NCBI GenBank assembly: GCA_963843375.1
Contig: CAWJKT010000004.1
Span: forward strand, 96,001-160,000
Length of the DNA: 64,000 bases
DNA from: an uncultured Pseudomonadota bacterium
GTDB taxonomy: Bacteria; Oederibacteriota; Muellerivitia; Muellerivitales; Muellerivitaceae
Reading direction: 5' to 3'
Below are positions 1-29,184 of this stretch, piece by piece; position 1 is the stretch's first letter; the number at the start of each line of letters is the position of its first letter. Position numbers and translations under genes: made by a program. Below the pieces are notes generated by a model. That model did not search any database, had not been told where the DNA came from, and was given only the letters and a program-made list of their open reading frames with translations.

Positions 1-2330
1 CGGCCAGCGTGGTCGTGGAATAGTCCGCCGGTGCCGTCGTGTGGCAGACGGTGCAGGCCTGATTGCCGGGATTGGGCATGTGCCCCGCCGGCAGGGCCGT
101 GGAATTCCAGTTGGCGGTCGTATGGCAGATGCTGCAGTCATTCGGTGCCACCATCTGGCCCGCGTTGTGGTCGGCGGGTCGGCCCTGCAGTGCAGGACTC
201 GCTGCGCCCAGGTAGAAGCTCAGCCCGGCTTCATGGCAGGTATCGCAGGTGGTGGCCACGAAGGCATGCGTGGCTTGGGTCATGTTCATGGGCCCGAAAC
301 TGCCCACCGCATAACTCGTGGTGGTATGGCAGGAGCCACAGCTGGTGCCGCCCAGATACGGGATGTGCGCAGGCGTCAGTACCGCATCCTTGGGGGTGAA
401 GTTGTTGTACCAGGTCAGCGCCGTGGTGCCCCCGTGGCACTGCGCACACTCACTGCTGGTGATGCCGGTGTGCAGCACCGAGTTCGCGGCCAGCGTCGCC
501 GTCGAATAATCCGCCGGAGCCGTGGTGTGGCAGAGGGTGCAGGCTTGATTGGCCGGATTGGGCATGTGGCCGGCCGGCAATGCGGTGCTGTTCCAGTTGG
601 CGGTGGTGTGGCACAGGCTACAGTCGTTGGGCGCCACCATCTGCCCGGTGGTGTGATCGGCCGGCCGTCCCTGCAGGCCCGGGCTCGCCGCGCCCATGTA
701 GAAAGTCAGACCCGCTTCGTGACAGCCATTGCAGGTGCTGCCAAGTCCCGCATGCGTCGCCTGCGTCATGTTCATCGGGTCCGAAGGTGCCGGCCGCAAA
801 GGTGCTGGTCACATGGCAGTTGCTGCAGTCCGTGCCGGTGAATGCCGGAATGTGCGCCGGGGATCAGCACGGCCGATTTCGGATTGTCGTTGTTGTTGTA
901 GAAGGTCAACGCGGTGGACCCGCCGTGACATTGCGCGCAACCGGTGCTGATACCGGTGTGCAGCACGGCATTGCTGGCCAAGGTGGCGTAGCTGGCGGTC
1001 GTACCGTTGATGGCGATATGGCACACCGCGCAGGCCTGGTTGCCGGGGTTGGGCATGTGGCCGGCCGGCAGCGCCGTGGTGTTCCAGTCCGTGGTCTCAT
1101 GGCACCCGGAGCAGTCGCCGGTGGCCTGCTGCGGCGTACCGCCCGAGAGGTGATCGGCCGGGCGACCCTGCAAGGCCGGGGTCGAGGCGCCCAGGTAGAA
1201 GCTCAGGCCCGCCTCATGGCAGGTGTCGCAGGTGGTGGCAACGAAGGCATGCTTGGCCGCACTCATGCCGGTCGGACCGAAGCCGCCGACGAGATAGTTG
1301 GCCGCATGGCAGGCACTGCAGTCCGTCCCGGACAGGAACGGGATGTGTGAGGGTGTGAGGACGTCCGATAAGGGGTTGTCGTTGTTGTTGTAGAAGGTCA
1401 GTGGCGCGCCGGCGCCGTGGCACTGGGCACACCCGGCGCTGATCCCGGTGTGCAGCACCGCGACGCTGGCCAGCGTGGCGTAGCTGGCCGCGGTGCTGCC
1501 GATGGCAATGTGGCAGACGGCGCAGGACTGATTGCCAGGATTGGGCATGTGTCCGGCCGGCAGCAGGTTGGTATTCCAGTCGGTGGTCTCATGGCACAGC
1601 GAGCAGTCGCCGGTCGCCTGCTGCGGCGTACCGCCCGAGAGGTGATCGGCCGGCCGGCCCTGCAAGGCCGGGGTCGAGGCGCCCATATAGAAGCTCAGGC
1701 CCGCCTCGTGACAGGTATCGCAGGTGCCGGACACGAAAACGTGCTTGGCCGCACTCATGGCGGTGGGACCGAAGCCCCCGGTGGTGTAATTGGCGCTATG
1801 ACAGGCGGCGCAGTCGGTGCCGGACAGATACGGAATGTGCGACGGCGTGAGCACGCCATCGACGGGCGTGTAATTGTTGAACCAGGTGAGTGGCGTGGTG
1901 CTGCCATGGCACAGGCCGCAGTTGCTGCTGATGCCGGTGTGCAGCGTGGCAATGGCCGCCAGCGTCGCCGGCGTGTAGTCGCTGGGCGCCGAGGCGTGGC
2001 ATTGTGCGCAACTGAGATTGCTCGGATTGGGCATGTGACCGAGCGGCAACGCGGTGCTGGTCCAGTCCGTGGTCTCGTGGCACACCGAACAGTCACTGCT
2101 GGCCATGCGCGTATCGGTACTGGCCAGGTGGTCCGCGGGCCGCAGCTGCAGCGGCGTGCCACTGCCCACGTAGAAGCTCTTCCCGGTGTCATGGCAGGTG
2201 TCACAGGTGCCGGAGACAAAGGCGTGCTTCGCGGCACTCATGGCGGTTGACGGGCCGAAGCCCCCGGCTTGATAGGCAGCGCCATGACAGGCACTGCAGT
2301 CCGTGCCGGCCAGCACCGGAATGTGCGGCG
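1..2330 (-). repeat. Intragenic tandem repeat, ~480-495 bp unit, at least 4.7 copies
   Basis: Unit HIP..GT(D/S)CxxCH..GP..M...H...CxxCH..RPADH..DCSxCH..W...LP.GHMPNP.N..CxxCH..LHTGI..CxxCH recurs. 1111-1190 and 1603-1682 are nearly identical, 492 bp apart. Confidence 0.92.
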
Positions 2331-3443
2331 GCGCCAGCGGTGTGGCATGCGTCGGCGACACGCCCGAAACGGACATGGGGATATACGGGGCCGGTACCCC
2401 GGCGAAGGTCTGGCCGGCATGGCACATGAGGCAGTTGCTCACGGACAGGCCTGCATGCAGGGTCGGAATGCTGGCCACGAGCATCGTCCAGGTCTCAGCA
2501 CTGGGCACATTGCCGTGGCAGATGCCGCAGTCCACCAGCGAGGGAATCGGCGGCACGTGGTTGGTGGGCTGCCCCGACACAAAACCGCTGGAGATCTTCA
2601 CCGTGCCGCTGTGACAGGTCTGGCAGGTCTGCACCGTCATCTGGGTGTGATCGAAAGCCGAGGGCACCCAGCTGGGGGTCGCGGTGCCGATACCGGTCGT
2701 GTGGCAGTTCTCGCACAAGTTGCTGGTCGGCATGTGCGTACCCTGTTTGCCCACCGCCTTGGTGCCGTTGTGGCAGCTGTAGCAGCCGCTGGTAATGCCC
2801 GTATGGTCGAAGGTCGCGTTTGCCCAGGTGCTGGTCAGGTGGCAGTCGCCGCACTCCAGGCTGGTGGCGATGTGATTGGCGGGCTTGCCCGAAGCCTGCA
2901 CGCCGTTGTGGCAGATGATGCAGAACCCGGCCGCCGCCAGCGGAATCTGGCTGTGATCAACGATGGTGGGCGGATTCCAGCTGACGACACTGTGGCAGCT
3001 CGCACAGTTCTGGGTGGTGGCAGGATGGGTCGGGCCTTCGCCCTGGGCGGTGGTGCCGTTGTGGCAGCTGACGCAGCTGCCCAGCACCTCGACATGATCG
3101 AAGTGCACCTGCGGACGAAAGGAATTGGTGTCATGGCAGGCGACGCAGTTGTTGGAACTGGCGATGTGACTGCGGCTCTTCGGTGTGGCGTTGAACTGCG
3201 AGCCGCTCGTGTGGCAGGTGAGCGCAGTCCCGTGGCGTGCCCTTGAAAATGGCATTGAGGTGGCAGGATTCGCACGGCAGGTCGCGATGCACACCGTCGA
3301 GTTCGAAACCGGTCGTCAGATGATCGAAGGGCACCGTGATGGGTGGCGCGCCGCCCGCCGCCCGCAGCGGCGGTGCCGCCAGCAGCGCCACCACCAGCAG
3401 CACCGTCGCGATCCATCCGCTCCTGATGGTGCGATGTCATCAT
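1..3443 (-). CDS. Giant secreted multiheme cytochrome c (>=36 CxxCH) built from ~160-aa five-heme tandem repeats; 3' end outside window; split by indels
   Basis: ORF 772..3294 has 25 CxxCH. The frame-shifted N-terminus (3131..3403: signal-peptide-like LLVVALLAAPPLRA, then FDHLTTGFELDGVHRDLPCESCH and a second motif across the shift) adds 2. Manual translation of 1-850 on the minus strand adds 9 (CSNCH, CNGCH, CSLCH, CTLCH, CAQCH, CGSCH, CDTCH, CSICH, CTVCH) with no stop before position 1. Confidence 0.93.
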
Positions 3444-3449
3444 CTGGGC

Positions 3450-5030
3450 CTACTGGATCCGCGCGCCCTTCCAGGAATCGCGTCGAATGGCAGCGCTCGC
3501 AGTGCACACCGTACTGTCCGAGATGCCGGTCATCCTTCTGATGGCAGGCGTCGCACTGCTGCGACATCTTGACCGTGCCCGGCGGGTCGCGGTGGCAGTC
3601 CGCGCATTGCAGCTTGGCGTGCGCTCCGAGCAGCGGGAAATGTGCCTCCCTGGCGTGATCGAAGCTCCACAGCGCCCAGCCGTTCGCCGAATGGCAGCCT
3701 TCGCACTTGTTGCCCAGGCCGCCCTTGTGCACGTCATCGTGTGCGTGGCAGGCGACGCAGGCGGAGGCCGCGGCGCTGAAGGCCAGCGTGGCATGGCACT
3801 GCGCACAGCTGACGATGCGGTGCAGACCCAGCAACGGGAAGCTGGTCACATCGTGATCGAATACCACATCGGCTCGCCAGCCGTTCTGCCCGTGACAGTC
3901 ACCGCAGCCGCCCTTGAGCTTGGCGCCGTGCGGATCCTCGCTGCGATGGCAGTCGGCGCAGTCCTGGCCGAGCTTCTGGGTCGCGACGGCCGCGGTATGG
4001 CAGGCTGTCGCAGGCGAGGTGCGCGTGCGCGCCCAGCAACGCAAATTGGTGCCGCCCGGTGTGATCGTAGTTGTCCACCTGCCAGTGACTGTTGTCGTGG
4101 CAGGTCCTCGCACTGGCTGCCGAAGCGCAGCGCATGCGCATCGTCGGCGCGATGGCAGCCCGCGCAGTCCTTCGGGATCTTGTCCTTGTAGTTGCCGCTG
4201 CGGTGACAGGCCAGGCAGTCGATCTGCGCAGTGCGCACCCAGCAGCGCATAGCCGGTCTCCTTCAGGTGATCGAACTTCGCCGCTCTTCCACTGCTTGGT
4301 CACATGACAGCGTCCGCAATCCGAGCCGCGGCTGCCACGATGCACATCATCGGTGGCGTGGCAGCCGACGCAGCTCGCTCGGTGTCGGCTTGTAGCGTCC
4401 GCCGATATGGCAGGCATCGCACGTCAGGGCCGTGTGGGCGCCGGTCAGTGCGAAGCGGGTCTTGCCGTGATCAAATGTGCCGCCGCTCCAGTCATTGCTC
4501 GAATGGCACTCGCTGCAGGACTGGGTGAACTGTCCACGATGCGACATCGTCCGCCTTGTGGCAGCCGGCGCAGGTGTCGGCCACGGCGCGCCAGGCCGCC
4601 TGCGGCTTGTGGCAGCTCTCGCAGGGCAGCGCGGCATGCGCACCTTGCAGGCGAAAAGTCAGTCAGCTGGTGATCGAAGTGCGCACGATCCAGCTGCACG
4701 ATGTCGGCGGTGCGCCCCTTGTGCTCGGTGTGGCAGGCGCGGCATTCGCCGGCGCCGGCATTCGCCATGCGGCCATGGTAGCCGCGGTGCGTACGCAACA
4801 TCGGCGGCAATCTGCTTGTGGCAGTCCAGGCACAGGGAGGTCTGAGTGCGCGCGTTGGTGCGGTCATGGCAAGCTGGCGCAGGTGGTCTCCAGCTTTGCG
4901 TGAGCGCTTGCGCACCTTCCCCGGCATCAGCAAGGTCTCCACCGATGCCGCACCCGCAGCGCCCGCACCCAGGCACAACAGCAGTAATCCACCCGGCTCC
5001 CAGCATCTTGAGAATCGAGCCGCGCCGCAT
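3450..5030 (-). CDS. Periplasmic multiheme cytochrome c, 21 CxxCH (3 N-terminal + 6 triheme repeats); split by several indels
   Basis: Stitching ORFs 4659..5030, 4445..5653, 4347..4643, 3899..4417, 3846..4250, 3316..4113 and 3450..3806 gives a signal peptide then repeats of (F/Y)DHxxxxFxLxGxHxxxxCxxCH..CxxCHxxxDxH....CxxCH, ending KGARIQ*. Confidence 0.88.
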
Positions 5031-5039
5031 GTTTGGCCG

Positions 5040-5923
5040 TCAGTAGATGTTGACCGCGACCACATGCACGATTCCTGCAACCAGGAGCATGAAGAACAGC
5101 GGGATGTGAAGGACGTGCCAGAAGGAGAACAGGCGCGCATAGAGACGGTACTCGGCGGTGCGGCGCCCCGCCTCCAGGCGCCGGTCGGCATAGCGGCGCG
5201 CCAGGGCCGCCAGGCGGTCCGCATGGCGCACGACGATGCGCCCCTCCTGGGCTTTGCGCCACCCGCAACGCCCGGGCGATCTCCCGGTACACCAGCCAGC
5301 GGGCAATGAGGATCCGCAAGGCGCCGGTGAACAGGTGCGGCACGCGCGCCAGCGGCGCCCGCGGTGGCTCGATGTACCGCTTGCTCGACGCGCGCGATGA
5401 CATCCAGCACCCCGGGCAGGAAGGCGATGGAGGTGCTTTGCGCGCGCAGCCGTTCGCCCACCGATCTGAGCTGCTCCAGGGTGCTCTCATGGCCGTCCAT
5501 GTGGGCGTGCAGGCGGGTATAGATGTAGCGGCCCACCACGCCGCTGCCGGCGACCAGTAACATGCAAATCAGGGCGACATTGCTGTTGGTGGCGCCGAAA
5601 CTGAAGTTGGCGTGAAACAGCACCAGCAGCGGACCGGTCACGCCGAGCACCATGTGGATCTGGAACCAGCGCCGGAATGGTTCCGATCCAGCGCAGCCAG
5701 GCAGCCCGCTTGCGGGCCGAATAGATCAGCAGCGCCAGCATCATGCAGCCACCGGCGATGCCAAGCGCATAGCCCACACCGTGCTGCGGGGAGATGTAGC
5801 GCTCCAGGTGGGCATGCCACCCCAAGTAGACCAGCCCGGCGACCACCGCACACCAGATCAACGGCCAGTGCAGCCGCAGGCGCGACGGCTGAGGCCCGCC
5901 AGGCTGGCGGCTTCGACGCTCAC
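5040..5923 (-). CDS. Inner-membrane protein with His-bearing TM helices (putative heme-b/quinol-linked partner of the multiheme cytochromes); frameshifted
   Basis: Pieces 5487..5861, 4445..5653 (N part), 4927..5490 and 5040..5306 join into GYALGIAGGCMMLALLIYSARKR..WFQIHMVLGVTGPLLVLFHANF..GVVGRYIY..WHVLHIPLFFMLLVAGIVHVVAVNIY. GTG start overlaps the upstream stop. Confidence 0.75.
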
Positions 5924-6780
5924 GGGATCACCTTGTCGATCACGATCTTCACACGGCGGCGATCGTGCGGATTGATGACGGCACTCGTGCCCTGCAGGTC
6001 CCCTGCGGTGGCCAGCGGCTGGCCGCTCGGCGAGATGCGCGCCTCGATCGTGACCCGTCCGGCGTTCGAGAGCGTGCGTCCCGGCAGCATCGACTCGCTG
6101 TCGTCCAGAGCAAAGCTCAAAGGCCAGGTGCCGACACTGCCGCGGTACACGGCGACCGGTGCCCCCGGGCTGTCCACTGACTTCGCCACGATGAATATCG
6201 TCGTGCCGGCGGGGGCACGCGACGCCAGGGCCGGAGCCAGCGCCACCTCGCCCGTGACACCGGTTGCCGCAGGCGCACTCGAGTCACCCGGCGCGCCGGC
6301 CGGCGGCGCCTTCAGCGCGGGCAGCTGATGCGCCCGCGCCTGCGCGGCCTGCTGCGGCCGGCCCAGAAAATCATAGGACTTGGCGAGCAGCTCCCAGTCA
6401 TCGTCGCTGCCGCCGCTTTTGGCCAGCCGGGCTTGCAGCGCCGCAATCGCCGCGTCCATGGAACCAGCACGCCCCGCATCCTTGGCGCTGCCCGCGGCGG
6501 CAGGCGCCGCAACACCGCGGCCCATGGCATCAGCCAAGTCGGCCCAGGAGTCACCCGTCGCTGCGCTGCTGACCGCGGCCGCAGCGGACGGCGGCGGCGC
6601 GGGTGTGCCGCCGTAGTTGAGACCCAAGTCTATGGCCATGACGATGAGCGCCGCCGCCCCGGCGGGCCACGGCAGCGCCGGAAGGGTCGCCAGTCGCGGA
6701 ATCGTCCGTAGCCAGGGCAGCAGCAAAATGACGGCCGCCAGCGTGAATACCCCGCCGGATATGAAGGACAGTACCGACAC
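5920..6780 (-). CDS. ccmI: Cytochrome c biogenesis factor CcmI/CycH-like (TM, TPR, C-terminal Ig-like domain)
   Basis: N-terminal TM with LLLPW, TPR-like DWELLAKSYDFLGR, and C-terminal TIFIVAK..GAPVAV..WPLSFALDDSESMLPGRTLS..VTIEARISPSG..GDLQG typical of the CycH Ig domain. Confidence 0.8.
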   Translation of the reverse strand: MSVLSFISGGVFTLAAVILLLPWLRTIPRLATLPALPWPAGAAALIVMAIDLGLNYGGTPAPPPSAAAAVSSAATGDSWADLADAMGRGVAAPAAAGSAKDAGRAGSMDAAIAALQARLAKSGGSDDDWELLAKSYDFLGRPQQAAQARAHQLPALKAPPAGAPGDSSAPAATGVTGEVALAPALASRAPAGTTIFIVAKSVDSPGAPVAVYRGSVGTWPLSFALDDSESMLPGRTLSNAGRVTIEARISPSGQPLATAGDLQGTSAVINPHDRRRVKIVIDKVIP

Positions 6781-6948
6781 TCGATGCGCTCCTCAGCAGA
6801 CCGTGCGCCACGGTCCCGATTCCAGGATCCGGATGCAAACAACGCGCTCGTGCGCTTTGCTAAGTAAAGTTGATTCTAATGATCGCCCAACAATTTGACA
6901 CATGTATGTGAATCACGACACTGATCCTGGATGCAGCGGCCGGCGGTA

Positions 6949-7015: not shown

Positions 7016-8335
7016 ATGAGCCCGCACATGGACTTCTGGTCATTGGTCCTTTACGGACTACCCCTGGCGGCCATCCTGGCTGTCTACATTTGGCGACAGC
7101 AGCGCACGCATCACCAGAATCGGCGTGTGCACGAAGAAACGGTAGCGGCCGGCTTGACCGAGCCTGCCTCCTTGCATCCAAGCATTGATCCGAGCAAATG
7201 TCTGGGCTGCGGCGCCTGCGTGAAGGCGTGCCCCGAGCAGCCGCATCACACGGTGCTCGGGCTGATCGATGGCAAGGCGGTGTTGGTAGGCCCGACCGAT
7301 TGCATCGGTCACGGCGCCTGCAAGACCGTGTGCCCCTTCGATGCCATCACCCTGGTGCTGGGCACCGAGCGGCGCGGCGTGGATATTCCCGTTCTCAAGC
7401 CCAACTTTGAATCCAATGTGCCGGGGATTTATGTCGCCGGTGAACTCGGCGGCATGGGTCTGATCAAGAACGCGCTGACGCAGGGCCGTCAGGCGCTGGA
7501 GTCGATCGCCAAGGAGCTGAAGCCCCAGCCCGGGGTGCTGGACGTACTCATCGTGGGCGCCGGCCCCGCGGGCCTGGCTGCGTCCCTGGCTGCCAAGCAA
7601 CTGGGACTGAATTATCGGACCGTTGAGCAGGAAGCCCTGGGCGGCGCGGTCTTCCAGTATCCGCGCGGCAAGCTGGTGATGACCGCGCCGGTGGAGCTGC
7701 CGATCATCGGCAAGATTCAGTTCCGCAATACGACCAAGGAGGAACTGCTGAAGTTCTGGACCCAGGCCTGCCAGGGCAATGGCCTGAACATCCGCTACAA
7801 GGAGCGCGTGGAGACCGTCCAGCAGCGCGATGGGTGTTCCAGGTGAAGACCACGCGGCGAGCGTACCAGGCTTCACGCGTCCTGCTGGCCATCGGCCGGC
7901 GCGGCACACCGCGCAAGCTGGGCGTACCCGGCGAGGAGCTGCCCAAAGTGGTGTACCGGCTTGATTGACCCGGAGCAGTACCAGGGACGACGTGTCGTGG
8001 TGGTCGGTGGCGGTGACAGTGCGCTGGAGGCCGCGGCCAGCATCGCCGAGCTGGGCACCTGTGCGGTGATCCTGTCGTATCGTGGCGAAGCCTTCCAGCG
8101 CGCCAAGCAGCGCAATCGCCAGCGCGTGCAGGAGGCCAGCGCCCTGGGCCGACCTCAAGGTACTGATGGGTTCGGCCATCCAGGAGATCCAGCCGCAGGC
8201 CGTGGTACTCAAACAGGCCGAAAAGTCATGGCCGTCGCCAACGATGCCGTGATCGTGAGCGCCGGGGGAGTATTGCCGAACGACTTCCTGCGCGCCATCG
8301 GCATCGAAGTGGAAACCAAGTACGGCACGGCATGA
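7016..8335 (+). CDS. Membrane-anchored 2x[4Fe-4S] ferredoxin fused to a thioredoxin-reductase-like FAD/NAD(P)H oxidoreductase; frameshifts near 7835 and 8150
   Basis: N-terminal TM, CLGCGACVKACP, CIGHGACKTVCP, VPGIYVAGELGG, IVGAGPAG, then in the shifted frame LAIGRRGTPRKLGVPGE and VVGGGDSALEAA. Confidence 0.85.
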
Positions 8336-10331
8336 TGAACCCGCGCCTGCACCGGACCGTCCGTGATGCCCGCCTCGGCCTGCTGCTGGGCCTCATCATG
8401 GGGCTGGGAAACCCGGGCGCCCGCGCAGCGACACCGCGCGCGCGTGGATCCGCTGGAGCCGGCGCGCAGCGCCCTGCGCACCCTGCAGTTCAGCCGCGCC
8501 ATGCAGCTGCTGAGGCCGCCGGCACGGCGGGCAATCCCGAGGCGCAATACCTGCTCGGTCTCATGTATCTGAATGGCGTGGGCATCGCGGCCGATCCCGC
8601 GCGATCACGCGCGCTGCTGCAGTCCGCCGCCGAACACGGTCAGGGCGCGGCCGCCTACGTGCTGGCCAGTGAACTGGCGCGCGATCCCGCGCGCACCGCC
8701 CGAGGCGGCGCGGCGCTGGCTGGAACACTCGGCGCAGCTGGGCTACGGGCGTGCCGTAGAGGTGTTGAAGGCAGGCGGCGTACTGCTCGCCCGTGAAGAC
8801 CTGGGTGTCTCGGATCCGGCGCTGCGCCCGGCGTGGGTGATCGCCTGCATCCGCCGCAATGACACGGCGGAGCTCAAGCGCCTGGGCACCGACAGCCTCT
8901 CGGCGCGGGATGCGTTCGGACGCGGATCGCTCGATTACGCCGTCCAAGCCGACGCAGTGGCCGCGGCGACCATGCTGCTGCAGCTGGGTGCGGACGTTCA
9001 CGCAGCGGACAGCTTCGGCACGACGGCGCTGATGCTCGCCGCCGAACGCTCCGACACGCCCTGCTGGACCTGCTGCTGCAGCATGGTGCGGACCTGCAGG
9101 CCGTGGATGCCGAACATCGCACCGCGCTGTTCTATGCCGCGCGCGCCAATCAGCCCCAGGCGATCACGGCGCTGCATGCGGCCGGCGCGGCGCTGGACGC
9201 CCGCGACGAACGTGGCTACAACGCACTGGATGCCGCACTGGCGGTCGGGCGCCACGGGCGCCGCCCAGGCCCTGCGCGATGACGGCCTGCAGGCGCATGT
9301 GGCCGCGACGGCGCCCGCGCGCAGCGGCAAATTTGATCCTACCCGTCCGGGTGACATCTATCCGAATTGGCCCGTGCTGGCCCTCGCCGTTGCCCGCAAC
9401 GACACCAGCGCCATCCGGCAGCTGCTGGATACCGGCGCCCTGCCAACCTGCGACTGCCGGCAGGGCGAGTCGCTGCTGCAGATCGCCGTGGATGCACGCG
9501 CCTTGAACGCCCTGCCGTTGCTGGGCACACGGGGCTCCATCACGGCTACCGATCACGCCGGGCACACCGCGCTGTGGCTGGCGGCCGCCCGTGGCGATCT
9601 CGCCGTGATTCGGGCCCTGCTCGCCTCAGGCGTGGCCGCCGACACGCACGGTGCCGAGGAAACCACCCCGTTGCTCGCGGCGTTGCACAGCTCCCACGCC
9701 GAGGCGGCGCAGGCCTTGCTGGAGGCCGGTGCCAATCAGGAGGCCATCGATTCGCAAGGCCGCCGGCCGCTGATGATCGCCTGCGCAACCCGGCAGCTGG
9801 CGCTGGTGCAGTGGCTGCTGGCCCATCACGTCCAGGTGGATGCGCAGGATGCCCAGCGTCGCACCGCGCTGTGGCATTCCGTCATCTTCGGCTCCGCGGC
9901 CGAGGTGAATGCACTGCTGACGGCCGGTGCGCGGGAGGACGTCGGCGGACGCACAGGGCCTGACGGTGCTGCACGCTGCCGCCGCTCAAAGTGACGCCGC
10001 GGTCGTACAAGCGCTGCTGGCCCCCAACACCAGCCTGAATCAGCGCAGCGTCAGCGGCGATACGCCGCTGCTGATCGCCGCGGCCAGGGGCCACGCCGAA
10101 CTGGTGCAAGAACTGCTGAAAATGCGTCCGGACCTGGATGTCCAGAACCGCGCCGGTGATACCGCGCTGATCGCCGCTGCGCGCGGGGGCTATGCAGCCG
10201 TGTGCCAGCTGTTGCTCGCGGCGGGAACCAATACTGCCCTGCGAAACGCTGCTGGCGTCACCGCCGCCGAGGTGGCTCAGGGCCGAGGCTTCACGTCGCT
10301 GGCCCGCGATCTCACCAGCAAGACTCTCTAA
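8332..10331 (+). CDS. Exported Sel1-repeat + ankyrin-repeat protein; frameshifted
   Basis: Signal-peptide-like start, GNPEAQYLLGLMYLNGVG (Sel1), many ankyrin motifs (GTTALMLAA, GHTALWLAA, GDTPLLIAAARGH, GDTALIAAARGG). ATGA overlap with the upstream gene. Confidence 0.82.
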
Positions 10332-10346: not shown

Positions 10347-11579
10347 TCAATAGGCCAAGAACGGTCCGGTATAAAGGCCGGCCGTGCGCTGTTCGAAGCC
10401 AACGTAGACAGGCCGGCCGTAGAAGAAGGGCATGCCCCAGGTGAAGTTGGTCGAACCACCTCCGCCGGCGAGGTCGATGAAGGCGGCGGCACCGGCGACA
10501 AAGGTATTCGGGTCGGCGATGGCAAAGTTCACGGTGCTGGAGGCATTGTTGACGCCAACTCCGGTGTTCACGGCAAAGACGCTCTGCGGCGCCACGGCCG
10601 GACAGTAGTAGCCCACGAACGGGCCAGTGCCGCACACGCCCAGCGTGGGATCATCAAACAGATAGGAGTCGGCCCCGGAATCAATCAGTGACGGAAGGGC
10701 CGTCGCGCCGCCATTATAGGTGGCGGTGAAGTCGCCATTGGCATTGGTGCCCAACACGGCCAGCCCGGTGGCGGGCAGCGCATTGTCGCTCTGGGTTCCC
10801 AGGCCGAAGATCACCTCGCCCGCCACGCTGGCATCGCCGTTGGCATTCTGCAGATTGGGCAGGTTCACGATCAACCCATTGTTATCCGCCGCGAACAGCG
10901 TCGCCGGATTGGTCACCTGGGTGCCAAGCGCAGCATTTTCTGCCGTGCAGACGCCGGCGGCGCTGCAGCCGTAGTAGACCGGAAGCGGTGACGCAGCGCC
11001 CGCACAGGCATTGCCGCAATCCTGTGCAAAGACACCGATGCCCAGTACACCGTTGGCACCGAAGCCGGAAATGCCATTGATCAGCGTCCCGTTGGCGCCG
11101 CACGTTGCTGGCGGCGGTGCGCTGCTGCCCGTATCATCCATGATCTGGATGGGAACCTTCGATGCGGCCTCCCCGGCCAAGGTGACGTCAGTGAGGGCCA
11201 CGGGCCCCCACGTCTGTCCGCCACCGAACGTGACGCACTCCTCCAGCGTCTGCCCCTGGGCATCGGTTTCGGGGCTGAGTTTGACACTCGCCGAGAGCAC
11301 CGAACCGACCAGTCGCAGGCCGGACGATCCGGTATCCAGCAGCACATGGTCGATATTCAGGCACTGAGTCTGGCTGCCCGGTACGCACACCGTCACAGTC
11401 ACGTAGGCATGGTTGATTTGACCGCTGGCGCCCGCTGGCCCGGAATCCACGATGACCGTCAGGCGGTTTTGCACCGGCGGCGGCGATTTCGCGCCGGCGC
11501 CCGTGCTGCTGTTGCCCACACAGGCGCCCAGCAATGTCGGAAGCATGACGCTTGCAATGAAGGCTACAGCACATCGCAT
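10347..11579 (-). CDS. DUF3443 family lipoprotein
   Basis: Lipobox LLGAC, then YVTVTVCVPGSQTQCLNIDHVLLDTGSSGLR and C-terminal WGMPFFYGRPVYVGFE. RBS GGAGG upstream of the ATG at 11579. Confidence 0.85.
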   Translation of the reverse strand: MRCAVAFIASVMLPTLLGACVGNSSTGAGAKSPPPVQNRLTVIVDSGPAGASGQINHAYVTVTVCVPGSQTQCLNIDHVLLDTGSSGLRLVGSVLSASVKLSPETDAQGQTLEECVTFGGGQTWGPVALTDVTLAGEAASKVPIQIMDDTGSSAPPPATCGANGTLINGISGFGANGVLGIGVFAQDCGNACAGAASPLPVYYGCSAAGVCTAENAALGTQVTNPATLFAADNNGLIVNLPNLQNANGDASVAGEVIFGLGTQSDNALPATGLAVLGTNANGDFTATYNGGATALPSLIDSGADSYLFDDPTLGVCGTGPFVGYYCPAVAPQSVFAVNTGVGVNNASSTVNFAIADPNTFVAGAAAFIDLAGGGGSTNFTWGMPFFYGRPVYVGFEQRTAGLYTGPFLAY

Positions 11580-11602
11580 GCGTTCCTCCTGCCTCCGCGC
11601 CG

Positions 11603-12073
11603 TCAGCGCAGGGTATCCAGTGCTACGCCGGCCGGGACGGCCGCGGGCAGATACGCCCGCCCAGAGTAGGCGCGCAGGTGCCCACCGGTATCCACCACCA
11701 GGTCTGCCGTCACAACATGAATGGCGCGCTGACGGCCCGCATTCTGCAGTAACCAAAGGGCACTGGCGTACTGCCCGAAGTACGCACCCAGCACGGCCGC
11801 CAGATCCGGTACTGCAGGTCCACTCCAGCTCACCGCAAACACGGTGCCGCCAGAATCCAGGAACTCGCGCACGGTCATGCCGTTGTCAGTCCGGATGCTC
11901 ACCGTATCGCCCGGCGCTGGCTGCACCGGTTGCACCTGGCCGTGCAGTTGCGTTGCATCCGCGAGAATACTGGCCGAATCCCCACCCAAGGTAGCCTGCG
12001 CACTGATCGACCAGGCGCACAGCGCGCTCGATATGACAATCCGCGGGACAACGCGAGCAACTGAACGATGCAT
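11603..12073 (-). CDS. DUF2844 family secreted protein
   Basis: AQATLGG..TVREFLDSGGTVFAVSWSGPAVPDLAAVLGAYF..GGHLRAYSGRAYLP. Sits in the usual position before DUF3443. Confidence 0.85.
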   Translation of the reverse strand: MHRSVARVVPRIVISSALCAWSISAQATLGGDSASILADATQLHGQVQPVQPAPGDTVSIRTDNGMTVREFLDSGGTVFAVSWSGPAVPDLAAVLGAYFGQYASALWLLQNAGRQRAIHVVTADLVVDTGGHLRAYSGRAYLPAAVPAGVALDTLR

Positions 12074-22737: not shown

Positions 22738-22867
22738 ATGACGACTCACCAAGACTCACCTCTCTCCGATAATTGGTCCAGATGGCTCCTTCAGCTACGC
22801 AATGGCGGCGATCCAACGTTCGAGACGACGCTGCGCACCGAGGTAGAGGCCTATGCGGATCGGGTAC
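22738..22867 (+). pseudogene. 5' fragment of a gene (probably a class I SAM methyltransferase) cut at the segment junction
   Basis: DNWSRWLLQLRNGGDP..EVEAYADRV resembles methyltransferase N-termini as I recall them. GC-rich codon usage ends abruptly after 22867. Confidence 0.5.
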
Positions 22868-22900: not shown

Positions 22901-22953
22901 AGTATGAGTCACGAGGGTTAGATAAAAATGCTTGAAAGGGTTATATTTCTTCC

Positions 22954-23361
22954 ATGAAAAAGCTAGCGAAGACGAAAGTCACGATTGAGATGGCAATTAT
23001 GTCCTTCGAGACGGACTTCCAGGGCATCGTGAACAATACGGAATTCATACGGTTCGTGGAACGAGTGCGCTACGCCCTTTCGAAAAAGCTGGGATTTTCC
23101 TTTAAGCAGGTCCGAAACGCCAAGCTTTGGACCGTGATGGCCCACGTGGAAATCAACTACCACACTCCAGGACGCTTTGAGGACATCATGTTGGGCACGG
23201 GGTGGGTCGAGAGGGTCGGTAATACCTCCCTGACGCTGGGCTATGAGTTCAGGCTCAAGGGCGTGAAGAGGTTGATCGCGGACGCAAAACAAGTGGTAGT
23301 TTTCGTCAACTCCGACTTAAAACCAACCCCTATTCCCGCTCACCTTCGCAAAAAATTATAA
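22954..23361 (+). CDS. Acyl-CoA thioesterase (4HBT/YbgC family)
   Basis: ETDFQGIVNN..F.E..R, VEINYHTPGRFED, VGNTS hot-dog motifs. Confidence 0.85.
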   Translation: MKKLAKTKVTIEMAIMSFETDFQGIVNNTEFIRFVERVRYALSKKLGFSFKQVRNAKLWTVMAHVEINYHTPGRFEDIMLGTGWVERVGNTSLTLGYEFRLKGVKRLIADAKQVVVFVNSDLKPTPIPAHLRKKL

Positions 23362-23465
23362 CGGGCCCCAAAAGAGGCCTGTAGAATGGGCTTATAGGCC
23401 CTTGTATTGAAACTGGTTCAAGGGTAATTTAACTATCTGCTTCAAAGTGTTTTTAAGGATCATTT

Positions 23466-24671
23466 ATGCCGACCCAAATGAACGCGCGCGGCCTTCAAGA
23501 ACAATTGCTAACCCTGAATAAAATCGGGATTGCCCTTTCCAAAGAACAAGATCTCAACCAGCTTTTGACCCTTATCCTCACCGAAAGCCGCCAATTCACC
23601 AATGCTGAAGCGGGAAGCCTATACGTGCGTGAAGGCCAGCAATTGCGTTTCTCCGTTTCCCAAAACAAAGTTCTGGAAGCCCGTAAAAAGGCGGAGCTGA
23701 AGGCCCACAAGAAGCTGTTGGAAGTTGTGCCTTCCACCTTCACTGGTTTTTACGTCTCCCTTGATAAAGCCTCTTTAGCCGGTTACGTGGGCGTGACCGG
23801 TAAGGTTCTCAATCTCCCCGACGCCTATAAAATTGCCCCGGGTAAGGAGTACAAGTTCAACCGTTCCTTCGACGAAAAGAACAACTACCGAACCAAGAGC
23901 ATGCTCATTGTTCCCATGAAGGACGCCTCGGGCAATGTGGTGGGAGTCATCCAGCTCATTAACGCCCATAGGGGAAAAAGCATCGTTCCCTTCGACAAAC
24001 ATTTCGAGAACCTGGTTTCGTCCCTGGCCAGCCAGGCGGCCATTGCCATCAAGAACACCATGCTCACCCAAGAACTGAAGGAAGCCTACCTCGATACGAT
24101 TTTCCGCCTATCGATCGCGGCGGAATATAAGGATGACGACACTGCAGTCCACATCCATCGCATGAGCCGTTACTCGGCTATCCTCGCGGAAGGATTGGGG
24201 CTTTCGGCGGAGGAAGTGGAAAGCATCCGTTACGCCTCGCCCATGCATGACATCGGCAAGTTGGGAGTGCCCGACTCCATTCTTATGAAACCCGGCAAGC
24301 TTACGCCAGCGGAATTCAAGGAGATGCAGAACCACACGGTCTTCGGTGCGAAAATTTTGGAAAACGCGAAGGCGGAACTTTTGAGGGTTTCCGAAATTAT
24401 CGCCCTGACCCACCATGAGAAATGGGACGGATCAGGTTACCCCCGCGGGCTCAAAGGCGAGAATATCCCCCTCTCTGGCCGCGTGGTAGCCTTGGCCGAT
24501 GTGTTCGATGCCCTTACCACCAAGCGCTGCTACAAACCGGCATTCTCCTTGGAAGAATCGATGAAAATTATTAAGGAAGGCACCGGCCGCCACTTTGATC
24601 CCAAAGTAGTTCAGGCTTTTGACAACAGCATCGAGAAGATCCTTGCCGTTAAGTCCCAATTCAGCGCTTAA
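23466..24671 (+). CDS. GAF + HD-GYP c-di-GMP phosphodiesterase
   Basis: GAF (NAEAGSLY, YRTKSMLIVPMK..GVIQLIN), HDIGK, HHEKWDGSGYP, ADVFDAL, GRHFDP. Confidence 0.92.
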   Translation: MPTQMNARGLQEQLLTLNKIGIALSKEQDLNQLLTLILTESRQFTNAEAGSLYVREGQQLRFSVSQNKVLEARKKAELKAHKKLLEVVPSTFTGFYVSLDKASLAGYVGVTGKVLNLPDAYKIAPGKEYKFNRSFDEKNNYRTKSMLIVPMKDASGNVVGVIQLINAHRGKSIVPFDKHFENLVSSLASQAAIAIKNTMLTQELKEAYLDTIFRLSIAAEYKDDDTAVHIHRMSRYSAILAEGLGLSAEEVESIRYASPMHDIGKLGVPDSILMKPGKLTPAEFKEMQNHTVFGAKILENAKAELLRVSEIIALTHHEKWDGSGYPRGLKGENIPLSGRVVALADVFDALTTKRCYKPAFSLEESMKIIKEGTGRHFDPKVVQAFDNSIEKILAVKSQFSA

Positions 24672-24875
24672 CCTTGCATTAAAATGTTTTGCGGCCCCAT
24701 CGATTACCGGGAATAAAGTGATTCGCGGGAATGAAAAGTCGACATAAGTCTTTCCAACAACCCGTAAATGAAGCTTTATTCTCTCCTTTTACGACCTTCG
24801 TCATGTTTCCAGTATTTTTACCCCTTAAAATGATGTAATTTCAATATCAGTTCTTTTTTGATGAGGACATGCCCG

Positions 24876-26491
24876 ATGTTCGTTCCTAAATCCATTGTTT
24901 GCTTGCGCGATTATTCCTGGAAACAACTTCCAAGCCGACTCCGTGGCCGGTCTGGTGGTGGGCTTGGTCGCCCTTCCCTTGGCGATGGCTTTTTCCATTG
25001 CGTGCGGATTGGGGCCGGAGAGAGGCCTTTATACGGCGGTAGTGGCGGGATTCCTCATTTCCGCGCTCGGAGGCAGCCGGGTTTCGATCGGGGGGCCCAC
25101 AGGGGCTTTCGTGGTGATCGTGGCTGGTATCGTGGCGAAGTTTGGTTACGACGGTCTGGCGGTAGCCACCGGCTTGGCGGGTCTGATCCTCATCGTTATG
25201 GGCCTCACCCGAATGGGGACTCTGGTGAAATATATCCCTTATCCCGTCACCACCGGGTTTACCAGTGGTATCGCGGTAATCATTTTCTCAGGCCAAGTGA
25301 AGGACTATTTGGGACTATCCATGAAGGCGGTTCCCTCGGATTTTCTCGAAAAATGGGGGGCTTATTTCCAGAATCTTTCCACTTGGAATCCCTATGCCCT
25401 GGGGATCGGTTTATTCACCATGGTGGTCATCGGCGCATGGCCAAAGAATTGGAAAGTACCCGGGACCATCGTCGCCCTCATTCTCGTTTCCTTCGCGGCC
25501 ACTTGGGGCAATTGGCCCGTGGAAACCATCGGAACCCGTTTCGGGGGTATCCCCACGTCTATTGCCCCACCCTCAATTCTTCCTCCAATCTTGGCCCCAA
25601 ATTAAACTTCTCCTGCCTTCGGCTCTGACCATCGCCATGCTGGCTTCCATCGAGTCTCTTCTTTGCGCGGTAGTGGCGGATGGGATGATCGGGGGAAGAC
25701 ACAAGTCCAACATGGAACTGGTAGCCCAGGGCGTGGCCAATTGTTTCTCGCCTATATTTGGTGGCATCCCCGCCACCGGGGCCATCGCCCGGACAGCGGT
25801 CAACGTAAAAAATGGCGGCCGGACTCCCGTGGCCGGTATGGTCCACGCCTTGGTGCTTTTCATCATTCTCATCGTGGCGGGTCCCTTGGCCGCCCATATT
25901 CCTTTAGCGGCGCTGTCAGGCGTTCTGGTGGTGGTGGCCTATCACATGTCCGAATGGCGTTCATTCCGATCCATTTTCGCGGGACCCCGCAGCGACATCG
26001 CCGTGCTGATGACCACGTTCCTCCTCACGGTTCTGGTGGACCTGACGATGGCCGTAGGCGTGGGTTTGGTGCTGGCTTCCTTCCTTTTTATGCGCAAGAT
26101 GGCGGACCTGACGCAAGTGCGCACCTTGACCCACGAACGCGACGGGGGGCTGTTGAACGGCTTGACGGTTCCCAAGGATGTGGAGGTTTACGCCATCAAC
26201 GGAAGTTTCTTTTTCGGTGCCGCCAACAAAGTAATGGAAGTAGAGAGGTCTTTCTTCAAAAAGCCCCGGGCGCTGGTATTGGAAATGAAAGGGGTTTTGC
26301 ACCTGGATTCATCGGGAATTAGGGTGCTTGAGCAAATTTACCACCAATGCCAAAACCGCGGAACCCGGCTGGTCCTTGTGGGAATCCACGCCCAGCCCAT
26401 GATGGCCATGCAGATGGCGAATAAATATGAAGAATTCGGCGAGGACAATTTTAAGGGCGACTTGGCCGAGGCTTTTAAAGAGTTTCAATAA
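24876..26491 (+). CDS. sulP: SulP/SLC26 anion permease with STAS domain; indels near 24930 and 25560
   Basis: AGLVVGLVALPLAMAF, IGGPTGAF, ESLLCAVVADGM, TGAIARTAVN, and STAS NGSFFFGAA..LDSSG. Confidence 0.9.
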
Positions 26492-26577
26492 GCTTTAGGG
26501 GGATCGATTTTTTGAACAAATCCCGTCTAAAGTTTCCCAATCCAAGGAAGTGGAGCGGACAAGCGGGGGAGTGTCGG

Positions 26578-27411
26578 ATGAAAGAGTTCTTTCCTGTGAT
26601 CATTGCGGTCTTGCTTTGGACGCCGGCTTGGGTCCAGGCGCAGGAAGGTTCGGTGGTACCCCTTTCCCAAATTGAAGGGGCTCTTTCGAAGGATTGGTGG
26701 CTGAAAGTTTACGCGGGCTATGATTATTCCATGATGGGTGACGTTATTAACGGGGTGAAAGCCTGGGAAGCATACCTCGAACCGGCTGTCACCCCCACGC
26801 TTTCCCTCGGCCACGGCGGTTTCGTGGATGGGACGGAAATTGGCTTTACCTTGGACCCGAACCATTCTATTTCGATTGAAGCTGAAAATATTGCCACTCA
26901 AAACGAAAATTTAAACTACACCAACGGAGGTACGACTACCTGGAAAACGATCGGGCCTAGTCTGGAGGACATCAACCTGAATTATTACCGGACCCTCTTC
27001 CGGTCGAAGGGGAACGGAACCTATTTGATGATCGGCGCCGGTTATTATCACACCAACGTGAATTACTATGATGGCTCCGGACCGTCCACGAGCCAGTCGG
27101 CCACCTTTACGGGGGATGTCATCGGGGGGGTATTGGGTGTAACGCAGAAATGGGAAATTGCCAAAAACTTCACTTGTGGTCTGTCGGTCAAGGGCCGTCT
27201 GGCTGCCTTCAGCGAAGTGAAATCCTCAAGCATCTTCGGGAATGGTACCACTCAAACGGTTAACGCTCCTTACGCTCTGATGATTTACAATCAGGGCCTG
27301 ACGGGAGCCATCACTGCGGATTCCCCCAATTATGCGGGGAGCAGCGCCCATTACGCAGTCGTGGATTATTCCGGGTTTCTAGGAGATTTCTTTTTAGCAT
27401 TTCACTTTTGA
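26578..27411 (+). CDS. Putative outer-membrane beta-barrel protein
   Basis: Signal peptide, alternating beta-strand pattern (GAGYY, DYSGF), C-terminal Phe (LAFHF). Confidence 0.6.
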   Translation: MKEFFPVIIAVLLWTPAWVQAQEGSVVPLSQIEGALSKDWWLKVYAGYDYSMMGDVINGVKAWEAYLEPAVTPTLSLGHGGFVDGTEIGFTLDPNHSISIEAENIATQNENLNYTNGGTTTWKTIGPSLEDINLNYYRTLFRSKGNGTYLMIGAGYYHTNVNYYDGSGPSTSQSATFTGDVIGGVLGVTQKWEIAKNFTCGLSVKGRLAAFSEVKSSSIFGNGTTQTVNAPYALMIYNQGLTGAITADSPNYAGSSAHYAVVDYSGFLGDFFLAFHF

Positions 27412-27892: not shown

Positions 27893-28945
27893 ATGGAACG
27901 AAAATTTTATTTTGAGACGGTGGGATTTGGGATGATTTTGGCGGGGATGGTTCTCACCAGCTGTTCGAGCCACTCCATGTTTCCTACCGCTCCTCCCCCC
28001 CCTTCCATTACCACTCCCACGTTCAGCTCAACTTTCGTCGCATCATTGACACCCTCTGGAACCCCTTCGACAGCCACACCCGTGCCTTGCGTTACCAATA
28101 CGCCCACCGGCACGTCCACATTCACCGTGACGAACACACCCTTTAACACCCCGGCGGTTGACCCGACGCCAACCATTCCAACCGCTACACCGACGCCTTG
28201 TGTTACCAATACTCCGACCAGCACGGCCACATTCACCGTAACGAATACACCTATTAACACCCCCACGATTGACCCGACGCCAACCATTTCAACCGCTACG
28301 TCGACGCCCTGCGTCACCAACACGCCTTCCGAGACCAACACGTCAACTCCGACGAATACCATCTCTATTCAGACGTCCACCAACACACCCACCTGCACAA
28401 TCACGCCCTGCGTTACCGATACCCCTTCACGTACCAACACTGCCACCCCGACGAATACTATCTCTATTCAGACACCCACCAACACACCAACCTGTACAAT
28501 CACGCCCTGCGTCACTAACACGCCTTCCCGGACCAACACACTCACCCCGACAAATACCACTTCTATCCTGACCTTTACGCCTACCGTCACCTTCACGCCC
28601 ACGCTTCATTTCACTAACACTTTTACCGTGACACCAACTTTCAATCCACCCACCTCCACCGCCACCAACACCCCGACCAATAGCCCCTCACCCACTGGAA
28701 CCTGGTACACCTCTACCCCCACGAATTCTCCCACCCTGACCAGCACGGGGTCTCCCACCAACACTGCCACGGTCACCCCCACCCCCACCGTAACGAACAG
28801 CCCTTCCAACACGCCTACTTCCACCGCAACGGATACCGCTACCTCGACTCCGGTCGGGACTTGGTACACCAGCACCCCTACCAATACCCCCACTAACACG
28901 GCCACTCCAACGATCACTTATACGCCTACTCCAACACCCACTTGA
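27893..28945 (+). CDS. Thr/Pro-rich mucin-like lipoprotein with internal repeats
   Basis: RBS AGGAG, lipobox LTSC, then almost entirely TPT-type low complexity with five PCVT(N/D)TP units. Confidence 0.8.
28085..28560 (+). repeat. Intragenic tandem repeats (2 x 111 bp, then 2 x 99 bp plus partial)
   Basis: Cys codons of PCVT(N/D)TP recur at about 28088, 28199, 28310, 28409 and 28508. Confidence 0.8.
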
Positions 28946-29184
28946 TTCCGGGGTCACACCCTAAGGGTCAAGAATCGATTAAGCTTTAAGATTCGAGTTT
29001 CCCGCTTAGAATCATCTCGCAATCCCGCTAGAAGTCGTTTATCCAAAAACTTCATTTTATTTGTGAGCCGTTGATTCTAAATCACTTAATCGGCTTTATA
29101 CTTACCGGAGTAAAAAGAGAAAAAAATTTCTCCCCTCCGGGAAGTTTTTTGAAGGAGCCGAAATTGCCGGACGCCAACTTATTT

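Follow-up and report, generated by a model that had tools for sequence, protein, structure and literature searches.

Among porin-cytochrome clusters, the kind called PCC3 was described by He et al. 2017 (Front Microbiol 8:1584, PMC5566968) as a porin, two multiheme cytochromes and a membrane protein. We compared with it a gene cluster at the left edge of a 64,000-nucleotide stretch of DNA (the window; G000:C4:96001-160000, where C4 is contig CAWJKT010000004.1 of the genome G000, assembly GCA_963843375.1), which carries the gene of a very large, repeat-built cytochrome c with 46 CxxCH heme-binding motifs. According to the main text of He et al. 2017 (PMC5566968), the PCC3 "extracellular" cytochrome has a median of 34 hemes, with 63 in Amphritea and as many as 85, the maximum, in Agromonas oligotrophica S58, is rich in repeats and in T, S, A and G, and has 22-39 amino acids (aa) per heme. 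The "periplasmic" cytochrome has a median of 21 hemes (21, 24 or 27 in Gallionellaceae), and the membrane protein, of ~300 aa, has five helices, of which the fourth bears SGXXG and the third and fifth bear WX3HX13H. In the text of Hoover et al. 2023 (PMC10734462), the component has 10-35 hemes in Gallionellaceae and gives long linear AlphaFold models.

By this published description the cluster fits PCC3, the reference proteins of Sideroxydans and Leptothrix being compared by description only, and the 46-heme cytochrome is an ordinary member of the PCC3 component already described there. The likeness extends to the gene set, to a ~300-aa membrane protein with five hydrophobic segments, SGXXG (here SGVVG) and both WX3HX13H motifs, to a 21-heme cytochrome in the place of the "periplasmic" one, and to a large putative outer-membrane protein. 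The large cytochrome itself, with 46 hemes inside the published range, 32 aa per heme, an A/T/S/G-rich composition and five tandem modules plus remnants, has the described properties as well. The cluster differs from the PCC3 of He et al. in its host, here a soil gammaproteobacterium that resembles Steroidobacteraceae and is not a known iron oxidizer, and in three further proteins encoded in the neighborhood, namely a divergent Fe-S/flavoprotein, a lipoprotein and one with a CycH Ig-like domain. The terms "pyridine nucleotide", "ferredoxin" and "lipoprotein" are absent from the main text of He et al. 2017 (PMC5566968).

Two further systems are similar in part. The predicted logic of the cluster is that of MtrCAB of Shewanella oneidensis and of MtoAB/PioAB, where a barrel-threaded cytochrome hands electrons to a surface cytochrome; there, the decaheme of the MtrA/DmsE family is inside the porin and MtrC is outside. 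The C-terminal six hemes of the large cytochrome resemble MtrA/DmsE (TIGR03508, below its cut-off). In contrast to MtrCAB, there are 46 hemes per chain here instead of 10, the chain lacks a lipobox, and the putative barrel protein comes from an unrelated family with SPOR-like and TPR parts. The c7 polymers of the GSU1996 type (Geobacter sulfurreducens) are likewise one chain of repeated small multiheme domains; however, the unit here contains five hemes in about 163 aa rather than three, the chain has 46 hemes rather than 12, and the gene lies in a porin cluster.

The 46-heme cytochrome and its modules

The gene is on the minus strand, with its ATG at position 3443, and its in-window part (1..3443) encodes 36 of the 46 CxxCH motifs. 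A preliminary description of this DNA had reported at least 36 motifs in a frame still open at position 1, and had proposed to extend the contig leftward and to recount them. The count of 36 is reproduced on the minus strand, and the extension past the window edge ends the gene at G000:C4:95021 and adds 10 motifs. Read through, with X at each of four frame breaks (see below), the protein has 1,477 aa with 92 Cys and 96 His, and contains 45 complete CxxCH and one that spans a break. Within the window, 25 motifs are in the minus-strand frame 775-3315, eight in the minus-strand frame 2-808, one (CSNCH) in the short frame between two frameshifts and one (CESCH) in the N-terminal frame, and one straddles a frameshift, being split into CA and TCH. 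The chance level is low: just 2 CxxCH are found across all other-frame open reading frames (ORFs) of at least 100 aa in window 1-3443. All 92 Cys are used by the 46 CxxCH, and there is no variant motif such as CxxCK. Counted on a length of 1,478 aa, which with 46 CxxCH corresponds to 32 aa per heme, the composition is 12.6% A, 12.0% T, 9.1% S and 8.9% G. In the public record, the gene is called as pieces of 778 and 583 aa, and its ortholog cluster is a "hypothetical protein" wherever it is annotated.

The layout proposed in the preliminary description, 12 N-terminal hemes followed by modules of ~160 aa with five CxxCH each, is confirmed, with a period of 162-165 aa. All parts are on the minus strand. 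A signal peptide without lipobox Cys and an N-terminal region with 12 CxxCH occupy 2341..3443; the last four hemes of this region form a degenerate module copy (residues 232-359). Module 1 (M1, 162 aa) is at 1855..2340, M2 (164 aa) at 1363..1854, M3 (164 aa) at 871..1362 and M4, which contains the insertions at 859 and 776, at 383..870; the first 127 residues of M5 are at 1..382, and the rest of it is left of the window. It is followed there by a truncated module 6, a variable Ala/Ser/Thr-rich linker and a C-terminal part with six hemes at 23-aa spacing. The first Cys of the modules are residues 384, 546, 710, 875, 1038 and 1200. Modules 1-5 have five CxxCH apiece, and truncated module 6 has three. 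M2 and M3 are 85% identical, M4 and M5 74%, and the remaining pairs of full modules 54-66%.

Thirteen module copies, taken from three genomes, share five invariant CxxCH and five invariant additional His (HIP, K/T-H, DH, GH, LH) per module. Across the three full-length orthologs, conservation extends to all 46 motif His and to 48 non-motif His, with nearly one non-motif His ahead of each motif, in agreement with the 1:1 ratio given in the preliminary description. This pattern fits bis-His ligation of all hemes, and all of them would be low-spin and electron-transferring. Among protein families, Pfam Cytochrome_C7 (PF14522) matches nine stretches of the large cytochrome with E 1.2e-38 (131.2 and 217.2 bits against a cut-off of 24.8, with 9-10 stretches matched), and Pfam MtrC/MtrF domain II/IV matches as well. 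The sole solved chain matched by sequence is 3ouq_A (E 4e-5), titled "Cytochrome c family protein", which we take to be a hexaheme fragment of GSU1996.

A profile of the module was searched against 1.84 billion representative proteins, as the preliminary description had suggested, and matched 365 proteins at E <=0.001 and 103 at E <=1e-30. Among the 150 matches listed, at least 36 relatives have more than 46 CxxCH; the most among them are 120, in the 3,949 aa of P0033, which has 21 weak module matches. Another relative, P0091, has 93 CxxCH in 2,703 aa. A 2026 peat preprint (10.64898/2026.05.27.727921) mentions, in its available text, up to 116 motifs. Thus 46 hemes are not exceptional, and the earlier estimate, which placed this protein level with or above porin-cytochrome clusters in heme number, is not supported, given the published median of 34 and maximum of 85 in the main text of He et al. 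2017 (PMC5566968) and the listed matches that exceed 46, up to 120.

The number of modules varies within the family. Five full modules are found in 4/8 orthologous loci, which are the window (45+1 CxxCH) and L005, L006 and L019 (46 each), and seven in the other four, which are L016, L018 and L020 (55 CxxCH) and L017 (56). The partner cytochrome is constant at 21 hemes while the large one varies between five and seven modules. We calculated a maximum-likelihood tree of 48 full modules, in which partial copies below 150 bits were left out and M4 of the window was included with two X. The first modules of all loci fall in one clade (support 100/100), and so do the last modules of 6/8 loci (support 100/96). 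Interior modules, on the other hand, pair within lineages: M2 is nested in M3 (window, L005 and L006), and further pairs are m2/m3 in L018, m3/m5 in L016 and m2/m6 in L017. Such a tree is expected if the ends are fixed and the interior modules have repeatedly been duplicated or gene-converted. The term "extendable", used for this protein in the preliminary description, is therefore apt, given the two module numbers and the independent interior duplications that the tree suggests.

Gene neighborhood and predicted role

The large cytochrome gene sits in a seven-gene neighborhood. Immediately upstream is the gene of the cluster's "periplasmic" cytochrome (3452..5030, minus strand), which has 21 CxxCH and about 12 single-base insertions. 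A frameshift-aware read-through of this gene counts 20 motifs, and a visible CERCH makes 21; in that path the final shift (3531) is misplaced compared to the site observed in contigs (3480). The partner has 21 CxxCH in 6/6 complete orthologs. Next is the predicted inner-membrane protein (5043..5962, minus strand, at least one frameshift), with WFQIH-x13-H, SGVVG and WHVLH-x13-H, all three of which are readable in frames of the window. Its intact ortholog L006:3079-3996 has hydrophobic segments near residues 35-53, 62-80, 100-120, 129-147 and 283-301, two WX3HX13H (residues 99 and 281) and SGVVG (residue 140). The same-strand run opens with a gene (5923..6792, minus strand) whose product has an Ig-like domain of CycH, the cytochrome c biogenesis protein H.

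A divergent gene (7019..8332, plus strand), the frame of which is locally broken near 7844, encodes a 4Fe-4S ferredoxin and pyridine-nucleotide-disulphide oxidoreductase. It is kept in 6/6 related loci that reach that side, and is among the best conserved of the cluster, with about 75-77% identity to L006. The in-frame TGA at 7844-7846 was considered as a selenocysteine codon and rejected; its flanks are out of register with the orthologs, which marks a local frameshift error.

Downstream of the large cytochrome is the gene of a protein of 821 aa, which starts with a hydrophobic leader, shows a weak SPOR match and a TPR stretch, and ends in ...SASYRLRF. Its C-terminus is YR[LI]RF in 8/8 loci, and its beta-moment count is 17 versus 10.6 +/- 2.5 in shuffles. 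The Atlas returns SPOR/TPR "hypothetical" clusters only, with a PelB-like lead at 0.83. The two genes abut in 8/8 loci. After this putative outer-membrane protein gene comes a lipoprotein gene of about 190 aa (L001:11973-12503 = C4:91,973-92,503, minus strand), which is found in 7/8 loci and not found in L019; its ortholog L006:12434-13015 has a LAGC lipobox, to which protein the copy of the window genome is 69% identical, and it matches no Pfam or NCBIfam family. The arrangement recurs in seven related loci, with the complete seven-gene set in five. The order from the Fe-S/flavoprotein to the outer-membrane protein is kept in L006, L016, L017, L018, L019 and L020, and L005 ends at a contig edge. 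A search of window 1-24,000 with Rfam gave no match at gathering scores, and no riboswitch was seen there.

Because the large cytochrome is very heme-dense (32 aa per heme) and repeat-built, with a second His conserved for every heme, the electron-transfer role suggested in the preliminary description is a sensible reading. We favor, with moderate confidence, the explanation that it is a large, variable PCC3-type cytochrome which forms a long bis-His heme chain and carries electrons between extracellular substrates and a barrel complex in the outer membrane. The protein would be exported and extend outward; its chain would take or give electrons at the outer-membrane complex and lengthen the conduit. 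The PCC3 cluster is predicted to wire the inner membrane to the cell outside. Solved multiheme wires extend by roughly 0.8-1 nm per heme, which would give the large cytochrome a reach of a few tens of nm. Module number would then set reach or electron-storage capacity, and the MtrA/DmsE-like six-heme C-terminus may sit in the barrel. Electrons could go either way, toward reduction of metals or humics, or from oxidation of Fe(II) or minerals.

Several observations weigh against this explanation or parts of it. The text of a 2025 paper (PMC12442390) still calls PCC3 functionally unverified, and, as stated above, the assignment of the cluster uses descriptions of the reference proteins. Neither the window gene nor its orthologs in L005 and L006 have a Cys following the signal peptide, and no secretion signal beyond Sec was recognized in the large cytochrome; surface cytochromes of the MtrC/OmcA type are lipoproteins. 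The case for the neighbor as an outer-membrane beta-barrel consists of sequence signs only, and Pfam OMP_b-brl matches one of four C-terminal halves (E 0.0027) and none of the other three. Three NCBIfam-type models score below their cut-offs. The DmsE/MtrA decaheme model TIGR03508 matches the C-terminus with E 3.4e-27 and 95.6 bits against 192.2, its best stretch placing residues 1328-1454 on model positions 68-198, so that one segment resembles it. The OmcA/MtrC decaheme model TIGR03507 gives 59.6 bits against 209.3, and the lipoprotein signal that goes with it is lacking, and TIGR04257 (nanowire_3heme) gives 30.6 against 40. The module profile has no significant match among solved structures (best E 0.22), and therefore the continuous heme chain is assumed, not seen. 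AlphaFold2 models of a two-module piece (10-row alignment, mean pLDDT 35.5, pTM 0.19) and of the outer-membrane protein (3-row alignment, pLDDT 34.6) are unusable, the former for heme spacing, and the complex predicted for the six C-terminal hemes and the barrel half (score 0.13, mark 0.32) gave no usable answer.

The lack of a lipobox, with a Sec signal peptide only, would also agree with a large cytochrome that is not exported, but is a periplasmic or in-barrel, periplasm-spanning wire or electron store (a capacitor), the outer-membrane protein having another role. It should be noted that "extracellular" in He et al. 2017 (PMC5566968) is a software prediction, as given in the main text, and that the text of Hoover et al. 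2023 (PMC10734462) considers that the many hemes might store electrons. However, a separate, size-constant 21-heme cytochrome already fits the periplasmic role, the large cytochrome is the size-variable component, as expected of a protein that is not confined by two membranes, and its gene adjoins the outer-membrane protein gene in all eight loci. We regard non-export as a minority explanation, roughly one that would hold in a case out of several. That the protein is a multiheme catalyst, such as a reductase or oxidase comparable to the octaheme or pentaheme enzymes, is improbable: such enzymes exist, and there is a weak sub-threshold similarity to HmcA-type models, but a candidate distal His is conserved for all 46 motifs, with none obviously left open for substrate, all Cys are in CxxCH with no CxxCK-type variant, Pfam and NCBIfam find no catalytic domain in the protein, and a tandem repeat of variable copy number is unlike a tuned active site.

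Within the favored explanation, an exported bis-His chain at the outer membrane, an outward-directed path fed by NAD(P)H would be plausible, because the cluster has a conserved Fe-S/flavoprotein and a membrane protein that resembles NOX/FRE proteins and is predicted to hold two hemes. A more specific model, which we consider tentative and rather unlikely in its entirety, is a quinone-independent conduit in which the cytoplasmic Fe-S flavoprotein would pass electrons of NAD(P)H to the NOX/FRE-like two-heme membrane protein; this would relay them to a periplasmic rod of constant size, with 21 hemes, which in turn would feed the outer wire. The length of the wire would be evolvable via independent interior duplication of the five-heme module, giving 46 or 55-56 hemes, and up to at least 120 in distant relatives, and it would be the MtrA-like C-terminus of the wire, rather than the 21-heme protein, that plugs the barrel.

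Assembly insertions and integrity of the gene

The large cytochrome gene has four +1 frame changes, each at a short C run of the coding strand, which accords with the suspicion of indels in the preliminary description. Contigs of four public soil-metagenome runs (X1, X2 and X3 denote runs) were aligned to window 1-5800; the best-matching runs may be the source sample, and their assembly is independent of that of the window. The single-base insertion at 3426, just past the start codon, shifts the frame within the signal peptide, and its base is missing in the X1 contig. The insertion at 3223 is in the second heme motif, the one split into CA and TCH (base missing in the X1, X2 and X3 contigs). 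The insertion at 859 is in a CCCC run where module 4 begins (missing in X1 and X2), and that at 776 in a CCC run of module 4 (missing in X1, X2 and X3). The run contigs also omit one base at eight listed sites of the upstream genes and at six more unlisted sites. Two orthologs, both in loci of related MAGs, have a single open frame with 46 CxxCH, L005 (759-5192; 1,478 aa, 88.9% identity to the window protein) and L006 (5577-10013; 1,479 aa, 82.2% identity); their motif positions match those of the window protein, and opposite each X the alignment has a gap, with no residue there. Finally, rpoB of G000 (G000:C1:296,987-299,991) is split into three frames by two insertions of the same +1 sense.

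Because the independent contigs lack these bases, the frames of L005 and L006 are intact and rpoB is split as well, the four frameshifts are shown to be insertions of this assembly, and the gene is intact in nature. The preliminary description had named real indels, i.e., a pseudogene, as the outcome that would undo its claim. The window sequence does carry the shifts, and the public record does split the gene into pieces; nevertheless, each inserted base is absent from independent contigs, all shifts are +1 and at short C runs, the essential rpoB is broken likewise, the adjoining 21-heme gene has about 12 similar shifts, and the coding signal in GC content of third positions (GC3) stays strong across all four breaks. 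A true pseudogene, with the shifts present in the organism, is thus extremely improbable. The density of insertions is uneven, with about 12 in the 1.6-kb 21-heme gene, four in the 4.4-kb 46-heme gene and two in rpoB.

The same contigs bear on the repeat array, the preliminary description having also named assembly duplication of the copies as a danger. Record 9 of X2 extends from 240 bases left of the window to position 904 and bridges M6/M5, M5/M4 and M4/M3; X1 records 2-4 span 676-1153, 1217-1645 and 1656-2437, and bridge M4/M3, M3/M2, M2/M1 and M1/N-terminus. Repeats of ~490 bp are a classic assembler trap, but since independent contigs run across all the module junctions and the copies differ by 15-46% in protein sequence, the array is not an assembly duplication of one or two real copies, an explanation to which we give next to no credence; the same five-plus-one layout is also present in two other genomes, one of them labeled an Illumina assembly.

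Chimeric contig and host of the cluster

Contig C4 is chimeric: two organisms are joined at window position 22867 (G000:C4:118,867), the part to the left being GC-rich and containing the cluster, and the part to the right having ~50% GC and coming from the organism to which G000 owes its taxonomy. We conclude this because the GC content, the gene identities, the collinearity with other genomes and the course of the X1 and X2 contigs all change at the junction. The GC content of C4 is 0.60-0.66 over 1-118 kb and about 0.50 over 120-460 kb, as in the rest of the genome, followed by about 0.70 over 460-564 kb. Genes of the left part have 69-77% identity to G033 (the genome of L006), and in G011, which is of the same genus as G000, they are 35-42% identical or not found. 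One gene to the right of the junction has 94% identity to G011, and the rpoB piece of G000 is 97% identical to G011 and 62% to G033. At the DNA level, collinearity with G033 stops at window position 22,865 and that with G011 starts at 22,926. The X1 and X2 contigs follow the window to 22,867 and then continue for 195 and 131 letters, respectively, into other GC-rich sequence. Run contigs do not cover window 23,101-25,500 and 26,101-27,000, with a trace of X1 at 25,501-26,100. The joined sequences have a short common string at 22,867.

The cluster is, then, from a high-GC soil bacterium similar to Steroidobacteraceae and of one family with G032 and G033, not from the organism after which G000 is named. 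G032, the source of L005, is assigned to Steroidobacteraceae by its record. In a sample of 151 genomes of the family of G032 and G033, a module match at E <=1e-10 is present in 24, and the close type (best E <=1e-76) in nine. None of the other 30 species in the family of G000 (0/30) and none of the 31 in its order (0/31) has the module, a same-genus genome that is 99% complete being among them. This absence had suggested horizontal transfer into the G000 lineage, which was rejected once C4 proved chimeric.

Other features of the contig are as follows. An ankyrin-repeat protein is encoded beside the cluster at window 8573-9991 (plus strand), and a DUF3443 protein at 10350-11885 (minus strand); the latter also adjoins the cluster in G033, with 77% identity. 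Left of the cluster, L001 (C4:80,001-92,000) contains a CydAB cytochrome bd oxidase, an AcrB-type efflux pump with its outer-membrane factor and a redoxin, which are ordinary chromosomal genes of the high-GC organism. On the low-GC side, window 28,000-28,999 shows a very strong local GC skew (-0.525), and its ORFs match no Pfam family. Near C4 460,000 the GC content jumps sharply once more, from about 0.52 to about 0.70, and stays high as far as position 564,527, where the contig ends; this site may be another chimeric join.

With a chimera and systematic +1 insertions, taxonomic, gene-transfer or pseudogene claims made on G000 need to be re-checked, and this practical result may matter more than the cytochrome. 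As for the cluster itself, PCC3 clusters are widespread candidates for extracellular electron transfer, the function of which is predicted only, and a clean soil example adds to the case that PCC3 conduits matter beyond iron oxidizers. The kind of cluster is known already, judging by the published PCC3 text, and the variation of module copy number within a family is a useful by-product. A constant 21-heme part combined with an outer part of five or seven modules would provide a natural length series, in which the number of hemes can be compared to reach.

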